From Eledone cirrhosa (taxonomy: Eukaryota), in NCBI GenBank assembly GCA_964016885.1, contig OZ024743.1, forward strand, positions 305,288,001 to 305,352,000: a stretch of DNA of 64,000 nucleotides, in the 5' to 3' direction. Of this stretch, positions 1 to 43,100 are shown piece by piece (the first letter of the stretch is position 1; each line of letters starts with the position of its first letter). The notes under the pieces were generated by a model. The model was not told the DNA's origin and searched no databases. It saw only the letters and a list, made by a program, of their open reading frames with translations. Made by a program: the position numbers and the translations under genes.

Positions 1-3000
1 ACATCTCTGTTCTCTAAGGTGTATACACTGTACCTAGAGATATAGATATCTCTGTTCTTTAAGGTATATATACTGTACCTAGAGATATAGACTATCTCTA
101 TTCTCTAGGGTATATATACTGTACCTAGATATATAGACCATCTCTGTTCTTTAAGGTATATATAATGTACCTAGAGATATAGACCATCTCTGTTCTCTAG
201 GGTATATATACTGTACCTAGAGATATAGACCATATCTGTTCTCTAAGGTATATATACTGTACCTAGAGATATAGACTATCTCTGTTCTTTAAGGTATATA
301 TACGGTACCTAGAGATATAGACCATCTCTGTTCTCTAGGGTATATATACTGTACCTAGAGATATACACCATCTCAGTTCTCTAAGGTATATATACAGTAA
401 CTAGAGATATAGACCATCTCTGTTCTCTAGGGTGTATATACTACACCTATTTAGATATCTCTGTTCTCTAGGGTATATATACTGCAGCTATATAGACATC
501 TCTGTTCTCTAGGGTATATATACTGAACCTATATAGACATCTCTGTTCTCTAACGTATATATATTGCACCTAGACATATAGACCATCTCTGTTCTCTAAG
601 GTGTATACACTGTACCTAGAGATATAGATATCTCTGTTATTTAAGGTATATATACTGTACCTAGAGATATAGACTATCTCTATTCTCTAGGGTATATATA
701 CTGTACCTAGACATATAGACATCTCTGTTCTCTAGGGTATATATACGGTACCTATAGATATAGACTATCTCTGTTCTCTAAGGTATATATACTGTACCTA
801 GAGATATAGACCATCTCTGTTCTCTAGGGTATATATACTGTACCTAGAGATATAGACTATCTCTGTTTTCTAAGGTATATATACTGTACCTAGACATATA
901 GACATCTCTGTTCTCTAGGGTATATATACGGTACCTATAGATATAGACTATCTCTGTTCTCTAGTGTATATATACGGTACCTATAGATATAGACCATCTC
1001 TGTTCTATAAGGTATATATAGTGTACCTAGAGATATAGACCATCTCTGTTCTCTAGCGTATATATACTGTACCTAGATATATAGACCATCTCTGTTCTTT
1101 AAGGTATATATAATGTACCTAGAGATATAGACCATCTCTGTTCTCTAAGGTATCTGGAGATATAGACCATCTCTGTTCTCTAGGGTATATATACTGTACC
1201 TAGAGATATAGACCATCTCTGTTCTCTAAGGTATATATACTGTACCTAGAGATATAGACTATCTCTATTCTCTAGGGTATATATACTGTACCTAGACATA
1301 TAGACATCTCTGTTCTCTAGGGTATATATGGTGTACCTAGAGATATAGACATCTCTGTTCTCTAAGGTATATATAGTGTACCTATACATATAAACCATCT
1401 CTGTTCTCTAGGGTATATATACTGTACCTAGAGATATAGACCATCTCTGTTCTCTAGGGTATATAAAGTGTACCTAGGGATATAGACATCTCTGTTCTCT
1501 AGGGTATATATAGTGTACCTAGAGATATAGACATCTCTGTTCTCTAAGGTATATATAGTGTACCTATACATATAAACCATCTCTGTTCTCTAGGGTATAT
1601 ATACTGTACCTAGGGATATAGACATCTCTGTTCTCTAGGGTATATATAGTGTACCTAGAGATATAGACATCTCTGTTCTCTAGGGTATATATAGTGTACC
1701 TAGACATATAAACTGTCTCTGTTCTCTAGGGTATATATACTGTACCTAGAGATATAGACATCTCTGTTCTCTAGGGTATATATAGTGTACCTAGAGATAT
1801 AGGCGATCTCTGTTCTCTAAGGTATATATACTGTACCTAGAGATATAGACTATCTCTATTCTCTAGGGTATATATACTGTATCTAGACATATAGACATCT
1901 CTGTTCTCTAGGGTATATATAGAGTACCAAGAGATATAGACATCTCTGTTCTCTAAGGTGTATACACTGTACCTAGAGATATAGATATCTCTGTTCTTTA
2001 AGGTATATATACTGTACCTAGAGATATAGACTATCTCTATTCTCTAGGGTATATATACTGTACCTAGATATATAGACCATCTCTGTTCTTTAAGGTATAT
2101 ATAATGTACCTAGAGATATAGACCATCTCTGTTCTCTAGGGTATATATACTGTACCTAGAGATATAGACCATATCTGTTCTCTAAGGTATATATACTGTA
2201 CCTAGAGATATAGACTATCTCTGTTCTTTAAGGTATATATACGGTACCTAGAGATATAGACCATCTCTGTTCTCTAGGGTATATATACTGTACCTAGAGA
2301 TATACACCATCTCAGTTCTCTAAGGTATATATACAGTAACTAGAGATATAGACCATCTCTGTTCTCTAGGGTGTATATACTACACCTATTTAGATATCTC
2401 TGTTCTCTAGGGTATATATACTGCAGCTATATAGACATCTCTGTTCTCTAGGGTATATATACTGAACCTATATAGACATCTCTGTTCTCTAACGTATATA
2501 TATTGCACCTAGACATATAGACCATCTCTGTTCTCTAAGGTGTATACACTGTACCTAGAGATATAGATATCTCTGTTTTTTAAGGTATATATACTGTACC
2601 TAGAGATATAGACTATCTCTATTCTCTGGGGTATATATACTGTACCTAGACATATAGACATCTCTGTTCTCTAGGGTATATATACGGTACCTATATATAT
2701 AGACTATCTCTGTTCTCTAAGGTATATATACTGTACCTAGAGATATAGACCATCTCTGTTCTCTAGGGTATATATACTGTACCTAGAGATATAGACTATC
2801 TCTGTTTTCTAAGGTATATATACTGTACCTAGACATATAGACATCTCTGTTCTCTAGGGTATATATACGGTACCTATAGGTATAGACCATCTCTGTTCTA
2901 TAAGGTATATATAGTGTACCTAGAGATATAGACCATCTCTGTTCTCTAGGGTATATATACTGTACCTAGAGATATAGACCATCTCTGTTCTCTAGGGTAT

Positions 3001-3480
3001 ATATACTGTACCTAGACATATAGACCTTCTCTGTTCTCTAGGGTATATATACTGTAGATAGAGATATAGACAATCTCTGTTTTCTAGGGTATATATACTG
3101 TAGATAGAGATATAGACAATCTCTGTTTTCTAGGGTATATATACTGTACCTAGACATATAGACATCTCTGTTCTCTAGGGTATATATACTGTACCTAGAG
3201 ATATAGACCATCTCTGTTCTCTTGGGTATATATACTGTACCTAGAGATATAGACATCTTTGTTCTCTAGGGTATATATACTGTACCTAGACATATAGACA
3301 TCTTTGTTCTCTAAGGTATATATACTGTACCTAGACATATAGACCATCTCTTTTCTCTAGGGTAAATATACTGTACCTAGAAATATAGACCATCTCTGTT
3401 CTCTAAGGTATATATACTGTACCTAGAGATATAGACCATCTCTGTTCTCTAAGGTATATATATAACATACCTATAGACAT
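1..3480. repeat. 46-bp minisatellite (GTACCTAGAGATATAGACCATCTCTGTTCTCTAGGGTATATATACT)n, intronic; continues beyond the window start
   Basis: Unit recurs every 45-46 nt (e.g. 121, 167). A variant block at ~1-930 recurs at ~1940-2870 (offset 1939). The reverse-complement array is at ~39085-41300. Confidence 0.97.
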
Positions 3481-5712
3481 AGCTCATCTCTACTGTCTGT
3501 AATATAGATATTCTACCCTGTTCTCTAGGCTGTATAGTGTACCATAATTTTACCCTAAGGGATTGTGTTTGTGCATATTCAAACATTACACTCCTTGCAA
3601 CTTTCCTTTCTAATCTAGATATTACATGACTTCATGTATCTTTAGCTCAATCCCCTTGTCCACACTTTTTGAAATATAACTGCTGTCTCTACTAGTCCTT
3701 GAATTCATCAGTCAATTATTATTTTATATCAAGGATTTTTATCTCACTTTACACCTCAGTTGGTCACTTGAAAGTTCATGACTCTTCTTGACTTTTGTAT
3801 TCTTCCTTATTTGTACTGTATTCTTCCTTATTTGTACTCCTCCAATCTTACACAATCCTTGACTTGTCACAATAATTAGGACCGTCGAAAAATATATTTG
3901 ATTGACATGCAGCAACTTCAAACACCGTTGTTTTTTTCTCATTTGCAAGCCAAGTCCCTACTAAATCTTAACCATCTATGAACCTAACAGATCATTAGAC
4001 AATTCTACCCATAGCTTTTCACATACCATATTCTCTTTCATCTCATGAACATTATATCAATATAGAAGTTAGCAAACTTATCGGAGGGCTCCACTACTCT
4101 TGGCAATAATTGGGTTTCAAACTTGATCACAGTTAAATACAGATGTAACTGAAACTATTTCTTTTCTTTTGGCCTGTTCCATCACATCCGTCATCCACCT
4201 CAAAGTCATAGGCACAAATCACCTGAAATTATTCACACCTAAATATGCAGCTACACTTAAGTAAAGAATGCTGCTAGCAATTCCCCCAAAAAGCCACTCC
4301 TACCAACAAAATGACTACCATCCATAAAAAAAAATATGTCTTCAAGTATCACATAGCTTGCACATTCTTTCATCTCTTGAATTGTAACCAATTCTTATGG
4401 TTTCTTGCCCAACGAATTTCTACCAACTTAGTGGAACTTCCTTACCCTTCACTCCTCAACAATGTAAGCAGTACTCCTATGGATAACATTTCTATGTGCA
4501 TTATCTGACATGTATTCAACTCTACATTGTATACACTTTGCAAACATCAATAAAACATTATTTCTCCATTACAATAGTTTCCCTACTATGTATATGTATA
4601 TATACACGCCAGTTGGAAAGCCTTTATGTAGAAACTCAACTTGCAAGAAATAGCAGGTAAATCAGCTTCAAATCACATCCTATTGGGTTGAAAAAATGAT
4701 AAGCACATTGGAAGATGTAGTTTTTGATATACAAGATAAAAATGAGATAATTATTGCAATATCGAAGTTCATTTGGGTTTAAACTATAATAATAACACAT
4801 CAAGTAGGTAAACACCCAGCCTGTTCTATCATCCTTAAAACCTGCTCTTCAGAGCTTGACTCTATGCCAAACTCTTGAATAAATCCACAGGAATCTCTTA
4901 TGATCCTTGGAAATATGCTGTTGTTTGTCCTGCTCCCAAGAAGATAGCTCACTTTGATTTCACCAAATACTGATATATTTATTTCACTTTCAAAATTTCT
5001 TTTACAACTTGGATTTGAACAAACACTTTATGATGGCAGAAAGGTAAATGTATGAGCTGTAGAGCAATTTAGTTACATCTGTTCTCCAGGATATGATCTG
5101 AAGATCTAGAACTACATTATCCAGTGTGTCTCTAATTATTATGACTATTCTTAAGAATACAATATAGCAGCTTCAGTTGAATGAACAATAAATCCAGTTG
5201 GTAGAATGTATGTTCCAAGTGGGTGTCTCTGACCATTCTCCACAGTAATGCCTTTGTCTGTGGGGTGTGGCTGAGGCTCTGTTCAGACTGGGATGTAATG
5301 TCTGTTTCTTCCCCCTCTCCTTTTCTTTTATTTCTTGATCCCTTTTTTTCTTTACTTTTTTTCTTCCCATTTTTGTTCCCTTTAATAATGTGTTTTTTAT
5401 TAAATACTGCTCAATAATTTTTATACAATGTCAATGAGTTTTCCACGACGTTGTGAGATTTGGTATATTGAAAATATTTGTTTTTTTCATTTAAATTATT
5501 TTATAATAAAAATTCTGCCTTAAAAAAATAATATCTATTATGTGCCGTTTCTATCTGAGGATTATAATATGAAGACAAGTGGTAAAAATACTACTTGAGA
5601 CATTGCATCTTATGCAAAACATATAAAATGTGGAAAATTTACTGAAACAGAGATTGTGATAATTAAAAGATAGTTTATGAAGAGAAAAATTATAAAAACT
5701 GAAACTAATTAC

Positions 5713-14847
<9,135 letters not shown>

Positions 14848-15160
14848 CTGTAAAGAGTAAATATTCATTTATGTCTTAAATATTCCTTTATGTCATGTTG
14901 ATAGATATATCAACTATTTCAGAATGTTAGTATATGTGTTAATACTGTTGAATATAGCAGTGGTTAGTGTATGTTATATTATATCGTAAAGGTGATGATG
15001 ATGATGATGATGATTATGATATTAAGAATCTTGACATGAATATGCATATATGCGTATATATCTAGCTGAAACTTTACAATAAGAACAAAACATGCCGAGA
15101 CTTATCTCCCAAACTTATCATGGCGGAGTTCGCTACCCGCAAGTGCGAGCCCTGCAAAAT

Positions 15161-15485
15161 GGAATGGCTGTTACAGTATGTCTCCCTCGCCTTCCTCCGA
15201 GGCAATATCCTCTCCATCCTGTTCACTAGCACCATGAGGTGGAGTGGCTGTTCCTGTGTGTCTCCTTTGCCATCCTCCGAGGGAATATCTTCCCCATCCT
15301 CTCCCCCGGGACCACGAGATGGAGTGGCTGTTCTAGTGTGTCTCTCGAGCCTTGCTCCGAGGCAATATCTTCTCCATCATATCCCCCCCGGGACCACTAG
15401 GTGGAGTCACTGTTCCTGCGTGTCTCCCTTGTCATCCTATGAGGCAATGTCTTTTCCATGCTATTCACCAAAACCACGAGACAGT
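15161..15485. repeat. 80-bp GC-rich tandem repeat, about 4 diverged units (mirror ~27441..27765)
   Basis: GGAGTGGCTGTTC/GGAGTC starts near 15161, 15241, 15321 and 15403. Confidence 0.85.
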
Positions 15486-15594
15486 GATCAATATTAATAT
15501 ATGATCTAAGCTTTTATTATTTTCAATAAGTTATTGTTACCAAACCATTGTATCTCAGTATTATCAAATAATTGAACGTGTGTTTTAAAATGTG

Positions 15595-15875
15595 GATTCG
15601 CATGTCCTAGTGGTATGTTTATTGGACTTACGATGATAATATCGTATGTTTGATTCCTGGACTATGTTGTGTGTTGTGTTTTTGAACACATTACTTTATT
15701 CACGCTGCTCCAGTATACTCAGCTGAAAATGAGTACCAGTAATAGCTAGATGTTTGACCCTGCGATCGACTGGCGTGCTGTCCAGTGGAGATTCTTAAAC
15801 TTTCAGTCACTTAATACTATGGAAACTGGGATAATAGCCAGCTCAAGGAGCCTCCGAGCTCGAGACACACTTTAG
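15595..15875 (+). mobile_element. Diverged tRNA-derived SINE (mirror ~27055..27330 -)
   Basis: CATGTCCTAGTGG A-box remnant, GTTTGATTCC B-box, CTCCAGTATACTCAGCTGAAAATGAGTACC body. Confidence 0.7.
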
Positions 15876-16206
15876 ACATTTAGTTTAGAAACGATGAGAG
15901 GATTTTGAAAAGTATGAGAAAGTTATAATCTTCACATAACATTTTTACTTTAGAAAAGTAGTCTAAATAATAGGGTATATGGCCTCCTCAACGGAAAAAA
16001 GGAACATTTGCACCTGTGGTACTTACACTGTGGTTTGCTGGGCGGAAATACTACCATTATACTGAAGAGCATGTTACATTTTCTTCCGTTATTTCAAAAT
16101 TATATTGGTCATTAACTACTATCTTGTCATATATTATTTTGACTTTTTAATTTTCATATACCACTTCACACACTTAAATATACTATTATTCATTGTAATG
16201 CATTCA

Positions 16207-16271
<65 letters not shown>

Positions 16272-16280
16272 TACACGCAT

Positions 16281-16312
<32 letters not shown>

Positions 16313-16370
16313 GTAATACGGTGAAAGCTTATATTTCTAATTTCAAAGTCGCTCACTGTTTCAAAACATA

Positions 16371-16415
<45 letters not shown>

Positions 16416-16458
16416 AATTATAAAAAATAAACAAAGAAGCCTTCAATACATCAAAAGT

Positions 16459-16514
16459 CTTTATTAGCTGACAGTGTTCGTCCCATTAATAGGGACTCAT
16501 CAGAGCAAGTAAAG
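16459..16514 (-). ncRNA. Degenerate type-I hammerhead motif in a Penelope-like pLTR remnant (mirror 26326..26381 +)
   Basis: CTGATGA-GTCCC(tattaat)GGGAC-GAAC-act-GTC. The core has GAAC where GAAAC is canonical. Adjacent to 41-bp tandem repeats. Confidence 0.55.
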
Positions 16515-16635
16515 AGACAAGAAGTATTAACGGCCAGAACAAGCCAAAAGTAAAGAGACAAGAAGTATTAACGGCCAGAACAAGCCAAAAGTAAAGAGAC
16601 AAGAAGTATTAACGGCCAGAACAAGCCAATATATA

Positions 16636-16836
16636 TATGTATTGAAACAGTGAGCGACTTTGAAATTAGAAATGTAAGCTTTCACCGTATTTTTTACTAA
16701 ACATTTTTTTAGCCTGATAGTGGAGTTTAGAACCCTCAGAGAAATAGAAAAAGATGAGTATTGACGTACATGGGAGTCGAACCCACATCTTTGGTTATCC
16801 ATACCACTGTGCTACCATTAAACCGACACATCACCC
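16636..16836 (-). mobile_element. tRNA-derived SINE (mirror 25963..26160 +) with an inverted copy of its 3' 55 bp at 16316..16370
   Basis: A-box-like GGTTTAATGGTAG and B-box GGTTCGACTCC. No complete cloverleaf is evident. Confidence 0.7.
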
Positions 16837-17973: not shown

Positions 17974-18022
17974 TTGCTGTATTTGCAATACATCTTGATA
18001 AGATGTATTGCAAATACAGCAA
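17974..18022. repeat. Perfect hairpin, 23-bp stem and 3-nt loop
   Basis: TTGCTGTATTTGCAATACATCTT-GAT-AAGATGTATTGCAAATACAGCAA. Confidence 0.95.
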
Positions 18023-18185
18023 TGTCTGAAAAATGCGGAGAGTATGTTAACTCAATAAAACTGTCTCGGATATTCTCAAAACAGATAGTTAGTCACTGAT
18101 GAAATTCCAACATACATATATACATATATTTATATATACATACATACATGCACACACATTCACACACACACACACACACAACGTG

Positions 18186-24857: not shown

Positions 24858-24896
<39 letters not shown>

Positions 24897-24952: not shown

Positions 24953-24983
<31 letters not shown>

Positions 24984-24985
24984 TT
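23857..24985. repeat. Imperfect (TA)n microsatellite, ~1.1 kb, abutting the right palindrome arm
   Basis: Read directly; further (TA)n tracts lie at 19346..19603 and 19942..20291. Confidence 0.97.
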
Positions 24986-25841: not shown

Positions 25842-25912
<71 letters not shown>

Positions 25913-26325
25913 TTGACATTTACTTGCTAAGAATGTAACTTCTAATTTGAATGGAAGTAGATGGGTGATATGTTGGTTTAATGGTAGCACAGTGGTATGG
26001 ATAACCAAAGATGTGGGTTCGACTCCCATGTACGTCAATACTCATCTTTTTCTATTTCTCTGAGGGTTCTAAACCACACTATCAGGCTAAAAAAATGTTT
26101 AGTAAAAAATACGGTGAAAGCTTACATTTCTAATTTCAAAGTCGCTCACTGTTTCAATACATATATATATTGGCTTGTTCTGGCCGTTAATACTTCTTGT
26201 CTCTTTACTTTTGGCTTGTTCTGGCCGTTAATACTTCTTGTCTCTTTACTTTTGGCTTGTTCTGGCCGTTAATACTTCTTGTCCCTTTACTTGTGGCTTG
26301 TTCTGGCCGTTAATACTTCTTGTCT

Positions 26326-26381
26326 CTTTACTTGCTCTGATGAGTCCCTATTAATGGGACGAACACTGTCAGCTAATAAAG
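26326..26381 (+). ncRNA. Degenerate type-I hammerhead motif (mirror of 16459..16514)
   Basis: CTGATGA at 26337, stem II GTCCC/GGGAC, then GAAC-act-GTC; preceded by four ~41-bp tandem units (three in the left arm). Confidence 0.55.
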
Positions 26382-26507
26382 ACTTTTGATGTATTGAAGG
26401 CTTCTTTGTTTATTTTTTATAATTTTTTTAATATATATATATATATATAAGTATGTTTTGAAACAGTGAGTGACTTTGAAATTAGAAATATAAGCTTTCA
26501 CCGTATT

Positions 26508-26718
<211 letters not shown>

Positions 26719-26834
26719 ATGAATGCATTACAATGAATAATAGTATATTTAAGTGTGTGAAGTGGTATATGAAAATTAAAAAGTCAAAATAATATATGAC
26801 AAGATAGTAGTTAATGACCAATATAATTTTGAAA

Positions 26835-26899
26835 TAACGGAAGAAAATGTAACATGCTCTTCAGTATAATGGTAGTATTTCCGCCCAGCAAACCACAGT
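26835..26899 (+). other. Candidate non-coding first exon of the SRCR-MAM gene (mirror ends at 16027 on -); start approximate
   Basis: Consensus donor GTAAGT at 26900 in non-repetitive sequence. An upstream exon is implied because the ATG exon begins right at a pyrimidine-rich AG acceptor. Confidence 0.35.
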
Positions 26900-28069
26900 G
26901 TAAGTACCACAGGTGCAAATGTTCCTTTTTTCCGTTGAGGAGGCCATATACCCTATTATTTAGACTACTTTTCTAAAGTAAAAATGTTATGTTAAGATTA
27001 TAACTTTCTCATACTTTTCAAAATCCTCTCATCGTTTCTAAACTAAAAGTCTAAAGTGTGTCTCGAGCTCGGAGGCTCCTTGAGCTGGCTCTTATCCCAG
27101 TTTCCATAGTATTAAGTGACTGAAAGTTTAAGACTCTCCACTGGACAGGACGCCAGTCGATCGCAGGGTCAAACATCTAGCTATTACTGGTACTCATTTT
27201 CAGCTGAGTATACTGGAGCAGCGTGAATAAAGTAATGTGTTCAAAAACACAACACACAACATAGTCCAGGAATCAAACACACGACATTATCATCGTAAGT
27301 CCAATAAACATACCACTAGGACATGCGAATCCACATTTTAAAACACACGTTCAATTATTTGATAATACTGAGATACAATGGTTTGGTAACAATAACTTAT
27401 TGAAAATAATAAAAGCTTAGATCATATATTAATATTGATCACTGTCTCGTGGTTTTGGTGGATAGCATGGAGAAGACATTGCCTCATAGGATGACAAGGG
27501 AGACACGCAGGAACAGTGACTCCACCTAGTGGTCCCGGGGGGGATATGATGGAGAAGACATTGCCTCGGAGCAAGGCTCGAGAGACACACTAGAACAGCC
27601 ACTCCATCTCGTGGTCCCGGGAGAGAGGATGGGGAAGATATTCCCTCGGAGGATGGCAAAGGAGACACACAGGAACAGCCACTCCACCTCATGGTGCTAG
27701 TGGACAGGATGGAGAGGATATTGCCTCGGAGGAAGGCGAGGGAGACATACTGGAACAGCCATTCCATTTTGCAGGGCTCGCACTTGTGGGTAGCGAACTC
27801 CGCCATGATAAGTTTGGGAGATAAGTCTCGGCATGTTTTGTTCTTATTGTAGAGTTTCAGCTAGATATATACGCATATATGCATATTCATGTCAAGATTC
27901 TTAATATCATCATCATCATCATCACCTTTACGATATAATATAACATACACTAACCACTGCTATATTCAACAGTATTAACACATATACTAACATTCTGAAA
28001 TAGTTGATATATCTATCAACATGACATAAAGGAATATTTAAGACATAAATGAATATTTACTCTTTACAG

Positions 28070-28163
28070 ATGATGAAGTTGAAAATGTATCCATCTCACC
28101 TGAGTTATACTTACCTTATATTAAGTGTATTGGTTGCTCTGACTTTATCTGAAGACGTTACAT
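28070..28163 (+). CDS. Copy R exon 1: start codon and signal peptide
   Basis: [31 protein letters not shown]; tctttacag|ATG ... ACAT|gtaagt. Confidence 0.82.
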
Positions 28164-31100
28164 GTAAGTAGAGAACAATCTATGTTTTCTGTCGGGGAAA
28201 GAAAAGAAAAATATATGTATTTATAGCTATTAAAATAAGGCCTCAAGTCAAGTATTCTATCTCTAGGGAAAAAAAAAAAATTATAATTGCCAAGATATAC
28301 CCACAGCACCAGTATTTTATTAAAAATATAAATGATCTATTTGTGCCACACAATAGATATAACATCCCCTCGGAGGAACAAGTCCAGTAAAGGTTGTTCA
28401 GGTAACACCAGTACTCACCCATACATACCATTCTCCCCTCTCCACACCACAGATTCAGCCCAAGGAAAAGCTGATACAATTTGGTACCATTGACATTGCA
28501 ACTCATTTCTACAACTGAGTGAACTGGAGCAACATAAAGTAAAGTGTTTTGCTCAAGGACACAATGCACCACCTGGTCTGGAATGTGAACTCATAACCTC
28601 ATGATAATTCCAACGTTCTAACCATATATATGAGAGAGAGAGAGAGAGCGAGAGCGAGAGAGAGAGAGAGAGAGAGTGTGTGTGTGAATTTCATATATCT
28701 AATGATATACGGTATGTTTAATAAACAAACATTTGGAAAGACTAGCTATGTATATTGAAAGGCTGACGGCTAGCACTGCCTAGCGGATTCCAGCAGAAGC
28801 AGAGGGGGACAACTGTCAATGTACATTTCAGGTTCTGGCCATCATCAGCACTGTACTTCCCTGTTATCTCCTAGAACATGAAACAGGAGAAAACATATAG
28901 TTTCTTCACCTGTATAGATGGGATGATTAGCCTCATATGCAAATTACACTAATTATCAGTGGCAGGACTTAAGGACTTGGACAGTACTACCATCCGTACT
29001 CATCCTGAGCCCATTTTGGACTACTAGAAAAACCACTTTCAGTGCTTCCTCAACGACCATGTCACCACCCCAGAAATCCTCCTGCAGAACACCACCACCC
29101 CAACTTCCTCTCCAGCATTGGATGTCACTCACCCTAACATTCAAGAATTAAAAAGAAGCATTTTACTCCATGAAACCCAGAAAAGATCCCGAAACCAACA
29201 ATGTGGATTTTTCTCCCATGGTCACCCTGAACTGAAGACCCGGCTAATGCTCCTGACACGGAAAGTCTGGGGAGCTTAAACAGTCCCTGGGAATTTAAAA
29301 AATGCCAACATTGTGACAATTTTCAAGAAAGGAGACTGATGACTCTGTGGAAACTATCGCAGCATCTCCCTCCTAAGCATTGTTGGCAAGATCTTCATGT
29401 GAATCCTCCTGAATCGACCCCCACCCCCATAGCAGAAGAGTGCCTTCCAGAATCTCGATGTGGTTTCTGACATTCAAGAGGTACTGTTGATATGGTTTTC
29501 TGTGCAAGACAGTTCCAGGAGAAGAGCTTTAAACAACAGAAACCACTGATATCCATGTTTTGGGACCTGCAGTCACAAGATCATCAATGAGAGCCATAAT
29601 GTGGGTCACAAGACCATCAATGTGGGCCACTTTGTCTGCCTGGACCACTTTGTGTCTCTGATCCATATGTTCTATGATGGAATGGAAGGTTGAGTGAGCC
29701 ATCACGGTGCCCTCTTGGATCTTTTCCCCATCACTGGTGGCCTCAAGCAGGGGGCGTGTTGACTCCAACTCTCTTCTCCATATACCTTGTTGCCATGATT
29801 AACGAGATTTCCTCTGACAGCACTGGCGTTGACATCTGATATAGACACAGTAGCAAATTCTTCAGCCTCGCCTGACTTTGCTCTAATACAAAGATTACCA
29901 CCACACCGGCATGCGGAAACTTCACTTCGCTGATGACAATGTGACTGTGAACGAGACTATGATCAACAATCAGAGATCAGAAAATATTTACAACGAGGCT
30001 TACAAATGTTTAGGGATGCAGATCAATGTAAACAAATAAAGCCTTTGACCTGCAACGTCAGACGTCAGCATTAACATACACCGACAGCTGGTAGAAATGG
30101 GCAATGCATTTCACTACCCTTGCAGCATCCTCTCGAACAACATCATTTGCGAGAAAGACTTTCCCAACAGGATCAAAACGGCTGATGCTGCATACGGAGA
30201 CTTACACACCAGGTCTTCAGCAATCACAGCCTCACCATAAGAACCAATATCATGGTCTTTCGAGCCATGGTCTTTTCCACCCTTCTGTACACATGTGAGA
30301 TGGGGACCAGGTATTGTAGGATATCAAACATCTAGAGCAGTTCCAGCAAACGAATCTCTGAAGAATCCGCCGCATTAGTTGGGAGAACCACATTACCAAT
30401 AATGAGGTACTCTCTCAGGCGTCTCTCCCCAGCATTGAGGCTACCATCATTCAACATCACCTTCGCTGGGGTCATCAAGTGTCCAGAATCCATTCCACCC
30501 AACACCCTCACGTCATCCTGTTTGGAGAACTTGCCAGCAGGAAAAGGCAACACAGAGGCCCAAAACGATGCTTCATGGATCAGTTAAAGACATCCCTGAC
30601 ACAAGCCAACTTCAAACATGACATATGGGAAACCATTGCTGCGAATGGGCCTTCCTGAGAAAGGACCAAGACATTTGAATACAACATTCAACATAAAGAA
30701 GATCTGCAATGTGTTGTAAAGAAGGCCAGACTTACCCAACCACGTCCACCACCAACATTCCCTGTGACTCCTGCTCATGACTCTTCAGGAATAGACTGGG
30801 CCTCCACAGCCATATTCACCACACAAGGAGAGAGAATGAGGATCCCAGTGTTCGGACATGAGCAGGTGCCAAGGACGAGAGTCTCATGGCTCAACCACCA
30901 GTACAAACAAGAATGATTAGAGACTACTAGTGCTAAAGAGATTCTGTGGGCTCAGTGTCGGAAACACATTCTTTGTTCATATCCACAAAACTACATTGAT
31001 GTCACTGGGCATTAACATCTAAAATGAGATCAGCGTCATCAGAATCAGTACTTGCTGGTAGTCATGTTTGCAATAAAGCGGGGAAAATGTGATCACCACC

Positions 31101-34100
31101 AAACGAGAAAGCTAGAACAAATTTAAGTTCCCAGGCCACTTTAGGCTCCAATATTTTACAGAGAACCTCATGGATGAGGGAACAGTTGTAGAGGATGGAC
31201 GAAAGGTGGGCTGGCAGTGGATGGTTAGATTTTGAGTGAAAGTCATGGCCATTGAACCTCATGAGGAGTTTCACTTGTTTCCAGCCTTTGTCAACAAAAC
31301 TGATATTGCAAGTGAGTTTGGTGTAGTGACAGATAGTAACAGCAAATTTACTAGGTGACATTAATTATCAGGAGAAAGGAAATCCTAATATTCATGCCAA
31401 AAGTATGGCTTTGTGGTTAAGAATCTTACTTCACAACTATGTAGTTCCATGTTCATTTCCATAGCTTGGAATTTTGTACAGGGTTGACTAATGTGGAATT
31501 CGGTTGTTGCAAATTCTGCAGAAGTCAATAAATAACTAATAAAACTTTTGGGTTTCATGTGTCAATACTAAAACATTTTCAATTTCATTTGGGAATGATT
31601 CATAATAATGAACTTCTTGGCAGGAGTTCTGTATGAAAGATATGGTGTATTAATGTTGTTACTACAGATAAAATGGTGAATTAATGTTGATACTACAGAT
31701 AAAATAGTGTATTAATGCTAGTACTACAGATAAAATGGTGTATTAATGTTGATACTACAGATAAAATGTTGAATTAATGTTGGTACTACTGATAAACTGG
31801 TGTATTAATGTTCATACCAAAGATACAATAATGTATTAATGCTAGTACTACAGATAAAATGGTGAATTAATGCTGGTACTACAGATAAAATGGTGTATTA
31901 ATGTTGATACTACAGATAAAATGGTGTATTAAAATTGATACCAAAGATAAAATGGAGTATTGATGCTGGTGCTACAGATAAAATGATATATTAATGCTAG
32001 TACTACATGAACTGGTGAATTAATGTTGATAACAAAGATAAAATGGTGAATTAATATATATATATTAAATATATTAATGCTGGTACTACTGATAAAATGC
32101 TGTATTAATGTTGGTACTACAGATAAAATGTGCCTCCTTAATTTGAAAGGGAAAAATTTCAAAATATTATGTGGAACATTGGTCAATATGGTTACACAAT
32201 TACCCACAAGTATGTGTGCATATATATGGTCTGTATGGAACCATCCAGCCCTTGTTAGCAGAGAAAGCAGGCACTAAAACAATGATAATTTTGATGATAT
32301 ATATATATATATGTGAGTATGTTTATTCTTTTTTAGATAATGGAGATATTGACATAGATGGTAATCTAGTTAAAATCTATTATAATGGAAAATGGGGAAC
32401 CATTTGTTCAGGTTCAACTAATGTGATTAAAGTGGTATGTCGCAGTCTAGGACGCCAGTAAGTACAAGAAATATTTCTTTACAAGTTAAATATTACAATA
32501 GCTATGTGCTAGAAGAACTGTGTTGGTTTATGTCTATTATTTTGTGAAAGATAAGGTCTTGAATTAGATCCCACTGTATGGTAACTTGGACAAGTTTCTT
32601 CTATCATACCTTTGTTTTTACCCAATCTTGTGACTAAATTTGGGTTGGTGAAAACATTTCGGCGACCATAGTCGGGGCTAACATGTAATTCAAATGGTCT
32701 TCTCTTGATGATTATACCTGTACAGTCATCCATGTTTACTATGATATAATGAATAGATATCAGAATAATTATCATGAAAATTATTACAAGAAACCAAAGG
32801 TATAATGATATTGATCTAGTTTGCTTTTTCAATAGAATTTTCTTCATTTCACTTAGTTTAGTTATAAAATATAAATATCACGTCTTTATATATTTTTTTT
32901 TTACTTAGCCTTCCCAAGAATCATGCATATATCATAAATCATTGCTGTGATATCACCCCAAAATGGTCAAGTTTACTAATCAATGTAAAATATGTGTACG
33001 TATTGAACAGCATCTAAGAAAAATAAAAGACACTATTAAAGGGGACAGAAAAGGAAAAAAAAGTTACTTAAAAAGAGAAAAAGAAAAGGAAAAAAGATCA
33101 AGCAATGAAAGAAAGGAAAAGAGGGAGGGACAGAGTTACTGTGGATAATAATCAGAGACACCCATTGCAACAGCCACATCACCTCATGGGGTTCCCTCCT
33201 CATGTTAGCTGCAGCCTTTCTGATTTTTTAGAGGAAATCAGCAGTGCAGGGACTAAGGACACCAGGGGCCTTGATATAGACTGGTGCAAAGAGGGAACAC
33301 TCAGACTGCATTCATCAACAGATGACTATCTTCTCAATTTGTGGAGCTTATGAAAAGTATATATATATGAAGAGTATATATATATAGTTGTTATGATTGT
33401 TGATAAGTAGATATAAATTGTAGTACTGGCTAACACCTGCATCCTTAATTCTATGGCAATTATTTATCAATAAGTGCATTATTTATAAAATAACATACAT
33501 GGATAATTATCATCACATGATAGAGTGCACAGGAGGGGAAAAATCACAGTGCAATATGAAGTTTGTTCAATAAGTAATGAGAACATTTCAGGAGAAACAT
33601 TACTTCTTTTTATAAGCTTACAAAATGTTGTCACATTCAAATTAATGATCTCTCACATCTACACACTTGTGCAGGTGTCTCTCTCACCCCTGTAAGACTT
33701 CTTTACAGACTTTCTTCTGCAGACCTATCAGGAAATTTGCTGATGCCTTTTTCAGCTTCTTTGTTGACTTCAATCTGATTTCCCGAGGGACAGGAAGAAA
33801 TCACAAGATGCCAGGCTGGAACTGTAGAATGGGTGTTGTACCAGTTTTATTCCCCCGTTTGCAATCCAGGTGTTCACCAGCATTGATTGTATCATAGGAA
33901 AATGTCCTGGTGGAACTACTGCTCACCACTGCTTCACTGCTGTGGCCACTTCTAACTCATCTTCTCCTTGAAGCTTTTTAAAACTTCAAGATAATGTTCT
34001 TTATTCGTGATTTTGTCCTCAGAAACCCATTCAGCATGAATCAACCCCTGAGTGTCGAAGAAAGGCATTTTCTTTCCATGGCATTTTCTTTTCACTTGCT

Positions 34101-37100
34101 TATCTTTGTCTCCTTGGGCCTGGGAGAGGACACGTGCTTCCACTGACCACTCTCTGGGTCATACATGAATACCCAACTCTCATTGCAAGTTACTATTCAG
34201 TAAACCAGAATCAGCCTCTATCGTATCGAGAATGTCAGTGCAATATTCCATATGAAACTGCCTCTGGTTCTCCGAGAGAATCTTTGGCTCGAATTTGGCA
34301 TATATTTTCTGGAGGTCCAGATTTTGGTCAGAATCCATTCCTGTCTTATTGTTTAGTAATGCATCATGTGGATAGCAGCAAAGACATGTACATTAAAATT
34401 ACTCTTGAGTCACAAATAATCGGTGTGTGGGTTGGGTGGGGGAATACTCAGGGGATTTGGAATAAGCAGGGGGGGGGGGGGTCAGTAATTTTTCTAGGTT
34501 GTCTCCGTTGATTTAAAAAGAAACAGAATTGGTTGTTTAGTTTACATATTGCAAGACCCAACCCATCCTATTTATTTTATAAACATGGGATTTCTAGTAA
34601 TGTACTTTTTTTTTGTCGTGTATAATGTTTTTTAATGTATAGAGAAAATTGTCACAGGAATGTTAGCACTTAAAATAAAACTTTGCCAGAGATAGATGAG
34701 CAAAATTTAATAAGCTGGAGAGCTGGAATAAGAGTGGGGGATGGGGTGGAAAAAATCTGAAGAATTAATAAGTGTGGCAAGGTGGATTATTCAAGACCTA
34801 AGAGTTCTTTAATGTAATGAGAGCAAACCCTATAAACTCATAAAATGAGTAAAATATTGTATTGTTATTTTACTTTTTAGATATGCAAATTCTCGCAGAA
34901 TAAGTTCATCCATATCTTCCTACATGAGATCACCAATTTGCAGAGGAGATGAGAGCTCAATAATGGACTGTCATGCTTACTTTTCAAGTTACACTAGTTG
35001 TTCACGCTACAAACTTGGTGCTCGTTGCCAGGATGATCGTAAGTACAAAAGTTCATATAACATGTATCCATGTGAGATTATTATTGAAATAATTCTTTAA
35101 CTTTTTTAACAAATTACAAAACCAAGTTTTATATCTAGTTGTCTTGGTTGTTATCAAGATACTGACTTATCACTGTTAACATTTGCCACTGGAATAATTG
35201 CACTAGACACTGTAAATCAATAAAACACTTGGTAATTTCACTTTATTACAGCTGATGTTTATATTTACAGTAGTGAATTGTTATTTGTTTTGTTACATAA
35301 CATAGTCAGAGGAGAATGAAGGTACCCATAAAGTTTGAAGGCCTTCAAAGACTGGTGTACGTGAAGGTGTATGTGTAGAGAGAGGAGGTTGTGTGATTTA
35401 TTTCCTTATGATCAAGGTATGCAAATAAAATATAAATGAGAACAAAACTAGGAGCCTGGTCTGAATGTTTGTAACAGAGTGAACTGTTCTAAAGAAACCC
35501 GAAAATCTGAATGTGTGTGGCAGTGGTGGTAGAATTGGGGAGCATATGTGACCAATCACCTCATGACCAACCAATGAAAAAAGAATGATGGCACCAGCAA
35601 TGGGAGGATGTTAGAGGTATAATATTGACAGCACATGGCTCAGTGGTTAGAGCATTAGGCTTACAACCATTAGGTTGTAAGTTTGATTCCTGGGCCATGT
35701 GGTGTGTTGTGTCCTTGAGCAAGACATTTTATTTCATGTTACTCCAGTTCACTCAGCTGTAGTAATAAGTTGTGTCATCACTAGTGCCAAGCTGTATCGG
35801 CTTTTGCCTTTCCCTAGACAACATCAGTGGCATGGAGAGGAGAGACTGGTATGCATGGGTGACTTTTGGTCTTCCACAAACAACCTTGCCTTGATTTATG
35901 CCACAGAGGTGGAACTTTCTAGATGTAAATCTCATGGATATTTGTGACTGAAAGGGGTTTTTACCAATATCAAACTTTAACATGCTGAATTTTGTTATGA
36001 ATTGCTTCCCTTGACACTGTATTATGTATTAACCCTTTAATGTTCAAACTGGCCAAAACCGGCCAGAATTCTCTACCTCTTTCTGTTGAAACTGGCTGTA
36101 ACTGGTCACTCAAACTGATGTTAAGGTATTGTTCTCAAAATAAATACTTTCAAAATCTCATAGATTCGATATTATGTGAGATAATTATGCGAGATAAAGC
36201 CTTTACCATGAAAATATAATAGTATATATAGAGTAATATGAATGCTAAAGGGGAGATTACTCTATCGGTGACATAATGTGCCTAGAGTGCTGAGAAGATT
36301 AAAAAAACTAGATGACTGATTTTGAAAATGCCTAGCTTTGGCATTAAGACAAAATGAAAAATCCTCCACAAGTATTATAATTTTGATACATCTGTTATCA
36401 GTAATCTCTCTAAATATTGAATTTTAATGCACATTGGAGATAATCTTACAGAATACATATAATGAATAACAAATTAGACTTGTTTACTGGTTGGGGGTTT
36501 ATATAACATTTTATCTATATGCAAACATTCGTAGTTTAAAATATAGGATTTGCTATATCATCAATATCTGTTAGATGTTAGCACCTGTACTATACTGTGG
36601 TGTAACAATCCTTTTATGTATTTGTTTATTGAAATTAATTTAAGAAATCATTAATTATAATTTGTATGACATTCCAGCAAACAATGTGTATTGCTCCTTT
36701 GACAACAATATCTGTGAAATGACTATTGATGGCAACGATGAATATACATGGAAACGGGTACAGCCTAGCCAGTCCCCTCAAGGAAATGGACTTGACAAGG
36801 ATCACACAACTAAATCTAGATTTGGTAATTAGTTTCAGTTTTTATAATTTTTCTCTTCATAAACTATCTTTTAATTATCACAATCTCTGTTTCAGTCAAT
36901 TTTCCACATTTTCTATGTTTTGCATAAGATGCAATGTCTCAAGTAGTATTTTTACCACTTGTCTCATATTATAATCCTCAGATAGAAACGGCACATAATA
37001 GATATTATTTTTTTAAAGCAGAATTTTTATTATAAAATAATTTAAATGAAAAAAACAAATATTTTCAATATACCAAATCTCACAACGTCGTGGAAAACTC

Positions 37101-40100
37101 ATTGACATTGTATAAAAATTATTGAGCAGTATCTAATAAAAAACACATTATTAAAGGGAACAAAAATGGGAAGAAAAAAAGTAAAGAAAAAAAGGGATCA
37201 AGAAATAAAAGAAAAGGAGAGGGGGAAGAAACAGACATTACATCCCAGTCTGAACAGAGCCTCAACCACACCCCACAGACAAAGGCATTACTGTGGAGAA
37301 TGGTCAGAGACACCCACTTGGAACATACATTCTACCAACTGGATTTATTGTTCATTCAACTGAAGCTGCTATATTGTATTCTTAAGAATAGTCATAATAA
37401 TTAGAGACACACTGGATAATGTAGTTCTAGATCTTCAGATCATATCCTGGAGAACAGATGTAACTAAATTGCTCTACAGCTCATACATTTACCTTTCTGC
37501 CATCATAAAGTGTTTGTTCAAATCCAAGTTGTAAAAGAAATTTTGAAAGTGAAATAAATATATCAGTATTTGGTGAAATCAAAGTGTGCTAGCTTCTTGG
37601 GAGCAGGACAAACAACAGCATATTTCCAAGGATCATAAGAGATTCCTGTGGATTTATTCAAGAGTTTGGCATAGAGTCAAGCTCTGAAGAGCAGGTTTTA
37701 AGGATGATAGAACAGGCTGGGTGTTTACCTACTTGATGTGTTATTATTATAGTTTAAACCCAAATGAACTTCGATATTGCAATAATTATCTCATTTTTAT
37801 TTTATCTATCTTGTATATCTAAAACTACATCTTCCAATGTGCTCATCATTTTTTCAACCCAATAGGATGTGATTTGAAGCTGATTTACCTGCTATTTCTT
37901 GCAAGTTGAGTTTTCTACATAAAGGCTTTCCAACTGGCGTGTATATATACATATACATAGTAGGGAAACTATTGTAATGGAAAAATAATGTTTTATTGAT
38001 GTTTGCAAAGTGTATACAATGTAGAGTTGAATACATGTCAGATAATGCACATAGAAATGTTATCCATAGGAGTACTGCTTACATTGTTGAGGAGTGAAGG
38101 GTAAGGAAGTTCCACTAAGTTGGTAGAAATTCTTTGTGCAAGAAACCATAAGAATTGGTTACAATTCAAGAGATGAAAGAATGTGCAAGCTATGTGATAC
38201 TTGAAGACATTTTGTTTTATGGATGGTAGTCATTTTGTTGGTAGGAGTGGCTTTTTGGGGGAATTGCTAGTAGCATTCTTTACTTAAGTGTAGCTGCATA
38301 TTTAGGTGTGAATAATTTCAGGTGATTTGTGCCTATGACTTTGAGGTGGATGACGGATGTGATGGAACAGGCCAAAAGAAAAGAAATAGTTTCAGTTACA
38401 TCTGTATCTAACTGTGATCAAGTTTGAAACCCAATTATTGCCGAGAGTAGTGGAGCCCTCCGATAAGTTTGCTAACTTCTATATTGATATAATGTTCATG
38501 AGATGAAAGAGAATATGGTATGTGAAAAGCTATGGTTAGAATTGTCTAATGATCTGATAGGTTCATAGATGGTTAAGATTTAGTAGGGACTTGGCTTGCA
38601 AATGAGAAAAAAACAAGGATGTTTGAAGTTGCTGCATGTCAATCAAATATATTTTTCGACGGTGCTAATTATTGTGAAAAGTTAAGGATTGTGTAAGATT
38701 GGAGTATTACACTAGCAGTACAAATAAGGAAGAATACAAAAGGCAAGAAGAGTCATGAACATTCAAGTGACCAACTGAGGTGTAAAGTGAGATAAAAATC
38801 CTTGATATAAGATAAGAAATGACTGATGAATTCAAGGACTAGTAGAGACAGCAGTTATATTGCAAAGAGTGTGGACAATGGGATTTGAGCTAAAGATACA
38901 TGAAGTCATGTAATATCTAGATTAGAAAGGAAAGTTGCAAGGAGTGTAATATTTGAATATGCACAAACACAATCCCTTGGGGTAAAATTATAGTACACTA
39001 TATAGACTAGACAACAGTGTACAGTATATATACTACAGACTGTAGAGATGAGCTATGTCTATAGGTATAATATATATATATACCCGAGATAGCAGAGATG
39101 GTCTATATCTCTAGGTACAGTATATATACCCTAGAGAACAGAGATGGTCTATATGTCTAGGTACAGTATATATACCCTAGAGAACAGAGATGGTCTATAT
39201 GTCTAGGTACAGTATATATACCCTAGAGAACAGAGATGTCTATATCTCTAGGTAGAGTATATATACCTTAGAGAACAGAGGTGGTCTATATCTGTAGGTA
39301 CAGTATATATACCCTAGAGAACAGAGATAGTTTATATGTCTAGGTAAAATATATACCTTAGAGAACAGAGATGGTCTATATGTCTAGGTACAGTATATAT
39401 ACCCTAGAGAACAGAGATGGTCTACATCTCTAGGTACAGTATATATACCCTAGAGAACAGAGATGGTCTATATGTCTAGGTACAGTATATATACCTTAGA
39501 GAACAGAGATGTCTATATCTCTAGGTACAGTATATATACCCTAGAGAACAGAGATGGTCTATATCTCTAGGTACAGTATATATACCCTAGAGAACAGAGA
39601 TGGTCTATATGTCTAGGTACAGTATATATACCTTAGAGAACAGAGATGGTCTATATCTCTAGGTACAGTATATATACCCTAGAGAACAGAGATGGTCTGT
39701 ATCTCTAGGTACAGTATATATACCTTAGAGAACAGAGATGGTCTATATCTCTAGGTACAGTATATATACCCTAGAGAACAGAGATGGTCTATATCTCTAG
39801 GTACAGTATATATACCTTAGAGAACAGAGATGGTCTATATCTCTAGGTACAGTATATATATCCTAGAGAACAGAGATGGTCTGTATCTCTAGGTACACTA
39901 TATATACCCTAGAGAACAGAGATAGTCTATATCTCTAGGTACAGTATATATAGCTTAAAGAACAGAGATAGTCTATATCTCTAGGTACAGTATATATACC
40001 CTAGAGAACAGAGATGGTCTATATCTCTAGGTACAGTATATATACCCTAGAGAACAGAGATGGTCTGTATCTCTAGGTACAGTATATATACCTTAGAGAA

Positions 40101-43100
40101 CAGAGATGGTCTATATCTCTAGGTACAGTATATATACTCTAGAGAACAGAGATGGTCTATATCTCTAGGTACAGTATATATACCTTAGAGAACAGAGATG
40201 GTCTATATCTCTAGGTACAGTATATATATCCTAGAGAACAGAGATGGTCTGTATCTCTAGGTACACTATATATACCCTAGAGAACAGAGATAGTCTATAT
40301 CTCTAGGTACAGTATATATAGCTTAAAGAACAGAGATAGTCTATATCTCTAGGTACAGTATATATACCCTAGAGAACAGAGATGGTCTGTATCTCTAGGT
40401 ACAGTATATATACCTTAGAGAACAGAGATAGTCTATATCTCTAGGTACAGTATATATATCCTAGAGAACAGAGATGGTCTGTATCTCTAGGTACACTATA
40501 TATACCCTAGAGAACAGAGATGGTCTATATCTCTAGGTACAGTATATATACCTTAGAGAACAGAGATGTTTATATCTCTAGGTACACTATATATACCCTA
40601 GAGAACAGAGATGTCTATATAGGAACAGTATATATACCTTACAGAACAGAGATGTCTATATCTCTAGGTACAGTATATATACCCTAGAGAACAGAGATGG
40701 TCTATATCTCTAGGTACCGTATATATACCCTAGAGAACAGAGATGGTCTATATGTAGGTACAGTATATATACCCTAGAGAACAGAGATGGTCTATATGTA
40801 GGTACAGTATATATACCTTAGAGAACAGAGATGGTCTATATCTCTAGGTACAGTATATATACCCTAGAGAACAGAGATGGTCTAAATGTCTAGGTACAGT
40901 ATATATACCCTAGAGAACAGAGATGGTCTATATCTCTAGGTACACTATATATACCCTAGAGAACAGAGATGGTCTATATCTCTAGGTACACTATATATAC
41001 CCTAGAGAACAGAGATGTCTATATCTCTAGGTACAGTATATATACCCTAGAGAACAGAGATGGTTTATATGTATAGGTACACTATATATACCTTAAAGAA
41101 CAGAGATGTCAATATCTCTAGGTACACTATATATACCCTAGAGAACAGAGATGTCTATATGTCTAGGTACAGTATATATACCCTAGAGAATAGAGATATC
41201 TATATAGGTGCAGTATATACACCCTAGAAAACAGAGATGATGTATATCTCTAGGTACAGTATATATACCCTAGACGACAGAGATGGTCTATATATATATA
41301 GATACAGTATATATACCCGGGATAGTAGGGATAGTCTTTATATATATGTATATTATATGCACCCAAAATACCAGAATTAGTCTATATCTATATGTACATT
41401 ATATATACCCTAGGCAGTAGAGATAGTCTATATCTGTACATTATATATAATCTAGATGGTATAGATTGTCTTTATGTATATGTACCTTATATATACCCTA
41501 GACAGCAGAGATGGTCTATATCTATACAATATATACCCTAGACAGCAGAGATGGTCTATATCTATACAATATATACCCTAGACAGTAGAGATAGTCTATA
41601 TCCATATGTACATTATATATACTCCACACGACAGAGAGAGTCTTTATCTGTTGGCACATTGTATATACCCTAGATAGCAGAGAAGGCATTTATCCTATAT
41701 GTACATTATATATATATATATATACATTAGACAGTAGAGATATCTATAGATAAGGAATCAAACATTTATTTCTCAGAAAGGTACAGAGTCTGTGCTCTCT
41801 GTGTGAATAAGAAGTGATGGGTGGGTCCAGCTCATGCTGTAGCCTATGAATTTGTGCAAAAAAGATAATTGGAATACCTGACAGATCAAAAAAAGATTTG
41901 AAATTATCTGTGAGATGAAAAACTTGGTTATACCCCGAATGTATTTGATCATATATCGTCAGGATCTGAGACAACGGTAGCTAAAAGAAGGAGACCTTAA
42001 AATATTGTTGGACCATGTACTGCTCTCGGCATGAAACAGTAAAATAAAGAAGGAAAACAAAATTGTATATTTAATTACTAATTCACAATTAAGTTTAATA
42101 GTTTTCTCATCATGAACAAGATGTCGTTCTATCGATTTCTGTCCTTTTCTCTTTCATCCTTCTGGTTGCAAGATATCATAATAACTTCCCTTGATTCTGT
42201 ATGATGGAGAATGAAGATTTCATAATTACTTCCCTTGGTTCTCTCTGAGGTAGAATCAATATTTCATAGTTACTTCCCTTATTTCTCAAGGGGGTAGAAT
42301 GCAATTAATTGTTTCTACTTTAGGCACAAGGCCAGCAATTACCCAGTTGCAATTAATGATCAACATAAAGCATAAGATAAAGTTTTGAATTCAATTAAAG
42401 TGTTCTATGCTGTCTATCTGTCTGTCCGCTTGTCTATCTGTATGTGGTATGTATGTGTGTGTATATAAATATACGTATGTGTGTGCGTGCGCATGTTTAA
42501 ATGTATGTATGTATGTATGTATGTATGTATGTATGTATGTATGTATGTATGTATGTATGTATGTATGCATGTGTGTGTGTGTACGCACGTATGTATGGAT
42601 ATGTGTGTGTTTGTGTGTGTATGTATGTATGTATGTATGTATGTATGTATGTATGTGTGTGTGCGTGTATTTATGTATGTGTGCGTGTATTTATGTATGT
42701 GTGCGTGTATGTGTTTAATGGAAAACAGGAATTTTAAACACCACGAGTGGAGCATGTAAAATTAAAGAAGGATCTGCTTTACCTAGATTTTCAAAGAACC
42801 AAAATGACTTTATGTGCAATGAGTGTGGCCGAATTTGCCTCAGGAAATCTAGTCTTAGTCATCACACAAGTCATGTACAAAATGTTGCTGATTATGGTCT
42901 CTTTGGCATTTCTTCCTGTTGGAAGTGTGGAAAACTATGTGCCACGTCCAATCGACTGCAATGTCATTTCAAGGTTCACCAAGACAAAACAGTGAATTAA
43001 AGTTCATCACTGTAGCATATGCAGAAAGGAATGTAAATCTTTGGCAGGGCTAAAGTGTCAAGTTCGTGCCACCCATGTGTGGGAAGGAGATCAAGTAGAA

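Follow-up and report, generated by a model that had tools for sequence, protein, structure and literature searches.

Whether the window, the whole 64,000-nucleotide stretch of DNA analysed here, contains a genuine palindrome with two copies of one gene, or two versions of a single locus facing in opposite directions, is the question raised by this locus. The first-pass annotation had proposed a young or conversion-maintained pair of inverted paralogs and had added, as a caveat, that the two arms could be haplotypes scaffolded in opposite orientation. That caveat is now the leading explanation, resting on a scaffold gap between the arms, a divergence of 1.24% and the lack of equal-dose arm A letters in another sample, S1. 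The assembled animal was probably heterozygous for a single SRCR-MAM gene, the arms being its two uncollapsed haplotypes scaffolded head-to-head over the gap.

On re-analysis, the inverted homology was seen again between 1-17771 and 24990-41748. The arms and the sequences around them are the following:

1..3517: 46-bp satellite array at the outer end of arm A, continuing past the window edge
3518..17771, minus strand: alignable part of arm A, likely the second haplotype
17772..19341: 1.57-kb segment present in arm A and likely deleted from arm B
19342..19604: AT tract opening with the same 35 letters as the arm B tract
23657..23856: 200-N scaffold gap
23857..24987: AT tract opening the right contig
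24990..39018, plus strand: alignable part of arm B
39019..41748: 46-bp satellite array at the outer end of arm B, within intron 4

The non-satellite alignment of the two arms contains 174 substitutions in 14,030 bp (1.24%) and 23 indel events, many of them within microsatellites and VNTRs. The identity of about 99% reported earlier is therefore sound for this part (98.8% by substitutions, indels besides), and the copies are indeed inverted, but the proposed arm length of about 17 kb does not hold, the alignable non-satellite part being only about 14 kb; satellite makes up the outer 3.5 kb of arm A and the outer 2.7 kb of arm B. Of eight segments, seven diverge by 0.7-1.2%, whereas the 520 bp adjoining the satellite diverge by 4.8%. 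The variants of the 46-bp unit are ordered differently in the two arrays, and a higher-order repeat of about 1.94 kb is present in arm A, none having been seen in arm B.

Mammalian sex-chromosome palindromes undergo arm-to-arm conversion and reach an arm identity of about 99.9% or more. The present structure is like them in its long inverted arms and in the mirrored genes around a spacer, and unlike them in its 98.8% identity, 23 indels, reordered satellites, gap and absence of equal-dose arm A letters in S1. The arms thus fall short of near-complete identity, and a divergence of 1.24% together with reordered satellite arrays does not fit a young or strongly homogenised pair; with no assembled sequence linking the arms and no equal dose of arm A in S1, the paralog pair put forward at first is not upheld. 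To judge from the sequence, the differences between the arms look allelic, consisting of scattered substitutions, length changes of microsatellites and VNTRs, and reordered satellites.

The positions of the inner ends, 17771 and 24990, were given correctly, but these ends are probably not the limit of the homology and likely mark the 1.57-kb indel, a segment that contains 139-bp tandem units and a 165-bp inverted pair (18187-18351/18998-19162). Two bases past 24990, arm B reproduces exactly the first 35 letters of the AT tract that opens at 19342, the next best match outside the arm B tract being 26 letters. The motif spectrum of the whole arm B tract, compared in the inverted sense with the arm A tracts, gives a cosine of 0.84-0.91. 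Comparison in the same sense yields 0.18-0.24, and two other AT tracts yield 0-0.04; since these sequences are of low complexity, the match is supporting and not conclusive. On this sequence comparison, homology appears to continue through the 1.57-kb indel up to the gap. If it does run into the AT tract bordering the gap, the right contig contributes no spacer of its own. What had been described as a 7.2-kb spacer does contain the 200-N gap, as noted at the outset, and is really composed of 5.9 kb of left-contig DNA (mainly AT tracts and mobile-element-like remnants), then the gap, then an AT tract of 1.1 kb; the gap interrupts it, and the arms are not joined by contiguous sequence.

Such an arrangement could arise if both haplotype contigs stopped near the same hard region of AT tracts and Penelope-like sequence upstream of the gene, the arm B contig inside the AT tract and the arm A contig about 4 kb further on; a long-range scaffolder would then tend to link the two homologous ends, giving an apparent palindrome. 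An assembly gap between the copies is a hallmark of false heterotype duplications, 61-92% of which lie on the same scaffold in long-read assemblies (Ko et al. 2022, PMC9516828), and here 200 N stand between the copies at 23657-23856. Near-identical copies on one scaffold, an intervening gap and, on the allelic reading, a false partial gene gain are shared with the published cases, for which half depth and discordant pairs are the main criteria; the copies are inverted in the present locus, and the main text of that paper contains no word beginning with 'inver', though palindromic read chimeras are noted. If the arms are indeed two alleles, the locus should be flagged for curation as a false partial gene gain, and it exposes two alleles differing at seven residues of the SRCR exons.

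The gene in question has been described as an SRCR domain followed by MAM domains. This anatomy is borne out by Pfam matches on single exons:

14754..14847, minus strand: arm A exon 1, signal-peptide-like, differing from the arm B exon by one synonymous change
10174..10294, minus strand: arm A exon 2, first half of SRCR
7557..7714, minus strand: arm A exon 3, second half of SRCR, six amino-acid differences from arm B
5713..5859, minus strand: arm A exon 4, MAM start
28070..28163, plus strand: arm B exon 1, signal-peptide-like, 3' end spliced to exon 2 in RNA contigs
32337..32457, plus strand: arm B exon 2, SRCR (PF00530, E 4.8e-5, a single-exon score under the curated cut-off)
34881..35038, plus strand: arm B exon 3, SRCR (E 0.0037)
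36678..36824, plus strand: arm B exon 4, MAM (PF00629, E 8.2e-5)
50768..51008, plus strand: exon 5, MAM, single copy in the window (E 1e-9)
61005..61099, plus strand: exon 6, MAM end (E 4.8e-5)
63491..63610, plus strand: exon 7, probably opening a second MAM domain (tblastn matches it weakly to Octopus homologs; no Pfam match for this exon alone)

The remainder of the gene extends past position 64000. Contigs of an RNA run (X4) are spliced, with joints between exons 2 and 3 and between exons 3 and 4, and their loose ends reach into exons 1 and 5. The gene is expressed and spliced, and its product, which combines a single SRCR domain with several MAM domains, is probably a secreted or surface protein. 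Both copies are intact, as first claimed, with GT-AG sites and an open frame kept across exons 1-4; alleles would show intact frames equally. Arms A and B differ at seven residues within the SRCR exons. In exon 3, all six substitutions in 158 bp change an amino acid (P 0.008 against 1.1%, post hoc), and the 520 coding bases together contain eight amino-acid changes to two silent ones, near the neutral expectation. Positive selection between the copies was considered and rejected, the eight amino-acid changes among nine differences in exons 2-4 not exceeding expectation (P 0.33).

The dose of arm A was evaluated in S1, using a run presumed to be DNA (X1), the only one of three runs from which an S1 path was taken. 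Its contigs were compared with arm B over 32140-39000 (6.9 kb), and the figures derive from eight long contigs and the 40 of 190 variant rows that were listed. Over the 5,077 letters that the eight listed contigs span, 10 differ from arm B and 6 are gap letters, which places the contigs about 0.2-0.3% from arm B, compared with 1.2% for arm A; arm A, if an allele, must therefore be a deep one. Third letters at 33539 and 37464 indicate that S1 probably comes from a different individual than the assembly. With the third and mosaic letters of contig 8 set aside, at most 10 of 42 A/B clusters are A-type (P 0.0005), or 13 of 42 if those letters are kept (P 0.0098); among the 17 multi-change clusters, no more than one is A-type (P 0.00014). 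These values presume independent 50:50 choices, and long reads would break the independence and weaken them. One contig of 1,850 letters runs unbroken in B letters through 37801-37844 and 38664-38761, with a single A letter at 37844. By what we take to be the bulge rule of Minia, an arm A path would be unpoppable at both clusters, and the unbroken B path therefore argues that arm A is not at equal dose in S1. Equal dose of both arms in every individual is thus not seen in X1, judged from the contigs and the presumed assembler rule.

Some features of arm A do occur in S1. Both forms of a 58-bp indel are present at 36603-36616 (contigs end at 36602 and resume at 36617, the bounds of the cluster), and S1 carries the A form of a 4-bp indel near 32297; a hemizygous arm A is accordingly possible. 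Elsewhere, mosaic A/B letters and the B-only passage at the two clusters lean towards allelic behaviour. Single A letters stand on B backgrounds at 33553 and 37844, and runs X1 and X4 disagree at 32454, at 33206 and in the 36963 insertion, which suggests that A/B differences segregate. The listed X4 RNA contigs have B letters throughout exons 2 and 3 and no other letters. Of ten X1 differences from arm B that could be placed, eight are arm A letters and two are third letters. The evidence leans towards segregating variants, and not fixed paralog differences. Shares of arm B words in three S1 runs are 0.88, 0.83 and 0.82 (0.84 being expected with random A/B choice), 31% of arm B words being absent from arm A. 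The X1 contig depth of 23-31 refers to the arm and is not convertible to copy number without a single-copy control; in the RAD-seq runs X5 and X6, depth lies almost wholly on repeats and is near 0-2 in unique bins, which yields no genotypes at A/B sites. The read comparison covered four of seven runs, X1, X4, X5 and X6.

The left-contig spacer contains an open frame and an inverted repeat:

21293..23005, plus strand: open frame of 571 codons from a presumed Penelope-like element truncated at its 5' end (RT, followed by a GIY-YIG-like end)
21012..21348, minus strand: pseudo-LTR-like repeat of the 3' end of the element in inverted orientation, matching 23320-23656

The frame is presumed to be Penelope-like from its RT-like and cysteine motifs and its structure; it has no Pfam match to either an RT or a GIY-YIG profile, and its homologs are only unnamed proteins of 30-43% identity. 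The inverted pair differs at 4 of 337 positions (98.8% identical) and supplies the inverted 5' copy of the 3' end (pseudo-LTR) that marks such elements. In Penelope-like elements, inverted 5' copies are usual and a known trouble for assemblies (PMC8557442). The spacer element shares its 5'-truncated frame, adjoining inverted 3'-end copy, tandem terminal units and nearby (TA)n tracts with the members of this group that have a C-terminal GIY-YIG (PMC8557442), and differs from them in having no RT or GIY-YIG profile match and no detected hammerhead. Rfam found no hammerhead within 16000-27000 at E<=1, and a candidate near 19684-19716 is unsupported, since shuffled sequences fold as well as it does (z -0.43).

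The inverted duplication may instead be real but polymorphic in the species, the assembled animal carrying it and S1 lacking it or being hemizygous; this reading has a modest chance of being correct. It would account for both forms at 36603-36616, for the ratio of 8 to 2 between arm A and third letters, which is what one would expect of an arm A in the minority, and for the inner pair differing by the same 1.2% as the arms; several related paralogs in Octopus bimaculoides (P0003, P0004, P0005) and the amino-acid-changing substitutions of exon 3 also suit it. Against this, inverted copies are normal in Penelope-like elements (PMC8557442), which explains the inner pair without any large event, and 4 in 337 is a loose date; the B-type path is unbroken at both unpoppable clusters, the 8 to 2 ratio of coding changes is near neutral expectation, and a duplication old enough for 1.2% yet unfixed would be unusual without selection. 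Possibly such a duplication was a fold-back centred on the Penelope-like element, the inverted 3' copy being the innermost part of the arm. There is a slim chance that fold-back synthesis ran at least 18 kb into the host flank and produced a segregating SRCR-MAM inverted duplication with a diverging SRCR, which, if true, would be a route by which Penelope-like elements make large host-gene palindromes; a literature search found no report of these elements building such palindromes, which is weak evidence of absence.

Arm A as a recent paralog from a gene cluster elsewhere, misplaced and misoriented beside arm B, is very doubtful: near paralogs of the family exist in octopus, and order and orientation over the gap have no sequence support, but S1 likewise lacks equal-dose arm A letters. 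It is very unlikely that the species carries a fixed palindrome holding two divergent copies of the gene. True palindromes can also hold gaps at AT tracts, frame and splice sites are preserved in both copies, and 1:1 bubbles could give word shares of 0.82-0.88; the scarcity of A-type clusters in X1, its unbroken passages and the B letters of the RNA contigs over exons 2-3 oppose it.

The closest named relatives of the gene are Octopus MALRD1-like proteins. P0003, P0004 and P0005 of Octopus bimaculoides, annotated as [quoted passage not shown], are like the window gene in possessing a signal-like N-terminus and one SRCR followed by MAM, in spliced exons here, and are colinear with exons 1-7. 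These names were assigned automatically, and no LDLa match was obtained for P0003. A literature search found no report joining SRCR, the MAM domain and cephalopods. Identity to the window gene is only about 27-60% per exon, and the Octopus proteins are therefore paralogs or distant orthologs. Related SRCR-MAM genes are present in Octopus bimaculoides as several paralogs, P0005 and P0003 being 80% identical over residues 1-345.

The inverted homology between the two copies of the SRCR-MAM gene start, arm A (3518-17771, minus strand) and arm B (24990-39018, plus strand), covers 1-17771 versus 24990-41748 in the window self-comparison, and these arms probably represent an uncollapsed haplotype pair. 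The first-pass annotation had described arms of about 17 kb with about 99% identity. The inverted homology and the identity stand (174 substitutions in 14,030 bases, 1.24%, by global alignment), whereas the alignable length is about 14 kb, since the outer ends of both arms are formed by a 46-bp satellite, whose unit variants differ in order between A and B. The arms also differ by 23 indel events, many of which alter the length of a microsatellite or VNTR. Seven segments diverge by 0.7-1.2%; in the final 520 bases adjoining the satellite (38500-39019 versus 3517-4040) divergence reaches 4.8%, fourfold that of the remaining arm. Each arm carries one tRNA-like sequence (25966-26038, plus; 16762-16832, minus; Rfam tRNA, 31-32 bits), likely a SINE head or pseudogene; ARAGORN called the plus copy alone, as tRNA-Ser(gga).

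The reported spacer gap is present as a single run of 200 N (23657-23856). The left contig contains, beyond arm A:
past 17771: 1.57 kb bearing small repeats, both inverted and tandem
from 19342: AT tract, then a 175-base hairpin, then a second AT tract
21293-23005: 571-codon frame flanked by an inverted 337-base pair

The left contig terminates within the distal copy of the 337-base pair, and the right contig has a 1.13-kb AT tract at its start. In the direction leading away from arm B, after two letters, the first 35 letters of this tract are identical to those of the 19342 tract (next best, 26), and its motif spectrum is that of the left-contig tract in inverted sense. By this low-complexity match, arm B is most likely arm A without 17772-19341, with homology extending to the gap, so that the sharp inner ends proposed at 17771/24990 would not be its limits. 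The frame and its inverted pair fit a Penelope-like element that is 5'-truncated and carries an inverted copy on its 5' side, both features being described for such elements in PMC8557442. Homologs of the frame are all unnamed, and profile searches of it confirmed no domains. Two more small elements with inverted ends, 18187-19196 and 19605-19779, lie beside AT tracts and are possibly extremely truncated Penelope-like insertions; the latter contains a candidate hammerhead-like motif, which gained no support from Rfam or folding.

Four of the seven runs listed were aligned to 32140-39000 at 90% likeness: two uninformative RAD-seq runs, the spliced RNA contigs of X4, and X1, a presumed-DNA run of sample S1 whose library type is not on record. 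The Logan preprint names Minia as assembler, in a passage from which parameters are absent. Among the matches listed, X1 provides 8 long contigs, which together span 5,077 letters; 10 other letters and 6 gap letters occur in them. Letters absent from both arms (third letters) are common to X1 and X4 at 33539 and 37464, and single arm A letters at 33553 and 37844 lie within 31 bases of third or arm B letters. S1 thus has haplotypes besides A and B, and the assembled animal was probably a different one. Among the matches listed, at most 13 of 42 clusters of A/B differences can be A-type by letter counts alone (P 0.0098). This maximum falls to 10 of 42 (P 0.0005) once contig 8's third and mosaic letters are excluded, and for multi-change clusters it is 1 of 17 (P 0.00014). 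The P values presuppose that each choice is 50:50 and independent, and they would be too strong for a long-read X1. Independence is not needed at four clusters where, by the Minia bulge rule, the A path would be unpoppable. At the first of these (32297) X1 has the A form, and at the second its contigs end and restart precisely at the cluster bounds (36602/36617). It crosses the third (37801-37844, ending in one A letter) and the fourth (38664-38761) unbroken with B letters.

Under this rule, a complete, equal-dose arm A is expected to give the A form or a break at all four clusters, and X1 passes two as B. The real palindrome of paired gene copies first proposed is not borne out in its fixed form, the least probable of the readings. 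Homology running to the gap, by a low-complexity match, fits two haplotype contigs stopping near one hard region, and it also fits a palindrome of greater extent with the element at its centre. The X1 mosaic fits variants segregating at one locus, or a minority arm A copy whose paths are sometimes pruned. A real inverted duplication, polymorphic in the species, is a reading of low probability, its retroelement fold-back version is half as credible, and a real but misplaced arm A paralog is slightly less credible still.

The haplotype reading, initially only a caveat, is now favoured by the gap together with the mosaic letters in S1. Both haplotypes would have been assembled as separate contigs, each halted by the AT-tract and retroelement region. 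Purging would have missed the haplotig, and scaffolding would have connected the homologous ends. Contact-based scaffolders are expected to favour such joins. PMC9516828 gives three marks of such false duplications: an assembly gap separating the copies, read depth reduced to half, and discordant pairs. Of these, the gap is found here. Against this reading, S1 contains both forms of a 58-bp indel, and of the letters placed in the matches listed 8 are A letters and 2 are third letters (about five unplaced). S1 is also fourfold closer to B than A is to B, so arm A would have to be a deep allele. The word shares of three S1 runs (0.88, 0.83, 0.82) agree equally well with an A/B choice made at random and with a B-like individual, and the inner inverted 337-base pair is as diverged as the arms.

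Seven plus-strand coding exons, all with GT-AG sites and compatible phases, were identified:
28070-28163, plus: exon 1
32337-32457, plus: exon 2, SRCR match as single exon
34881-35038, plus: exon 3, SRCR match as single exon
36678-36824, plus: exon 4, MAM match as single exon
50768-51008, plus: exon 5, MAM match as single exon
61005-61099, plus: exon 6, MAM match as single exon
63491-63610, plus: exon 7

In this single-exon search for SRCR and MAM domains, matched by exons 2-6, exon 7 gave no match. Among named proteins, the nearest relatives found with colinear matches are SRCR-MAM proteins of Octopus bimaculoides, which points to a probable cephalopod host. As previously noted, both copies keep frame and splice sites, exons 1-4 being intact in arm A too, where, over 520 coding bases, 8 differences from arm B change an amino acid and 2 are silent. 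Six of the 8 fall in SRCR exon 3 (34881-35038 versus 7714-7557), whose 6 substitutions in 158 bp all change amino acids (post hoc P 0.008 versus background); this hints that selection may be diversifying the alleles or copies. The introns carry what translated fragments and motifs suggest are decayed mobile elements, at 28760-30920 (mirror 11930-14070), 33955-34392 (with mirror) and 43500-45940: part of a LINE-like element, part of a mariner-like transposase, and a non-LTR element bearing a restriction-like endonuclease.

The B-like gene copy is expressed and spliced: X4 joins 32457 to 34881 and 35038 to 36678 at a depth of 1,636, carries B letters across exons 2 and 3, and has loose ends running into exons 1 and 5, with one letter in exon 5 differing from the window. 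X4 reads 161 letters upstream of exon 2, of which exon 1 accounts for 94; further 5' sequence therefore exists, the place of which was not found. The main X4 contig stops at 36770, beside the A of a CAG codon and 3 bases before an A/B difference (36770-36774). A second allele could explain this, as could editing of the site or a cryptic acceptor.
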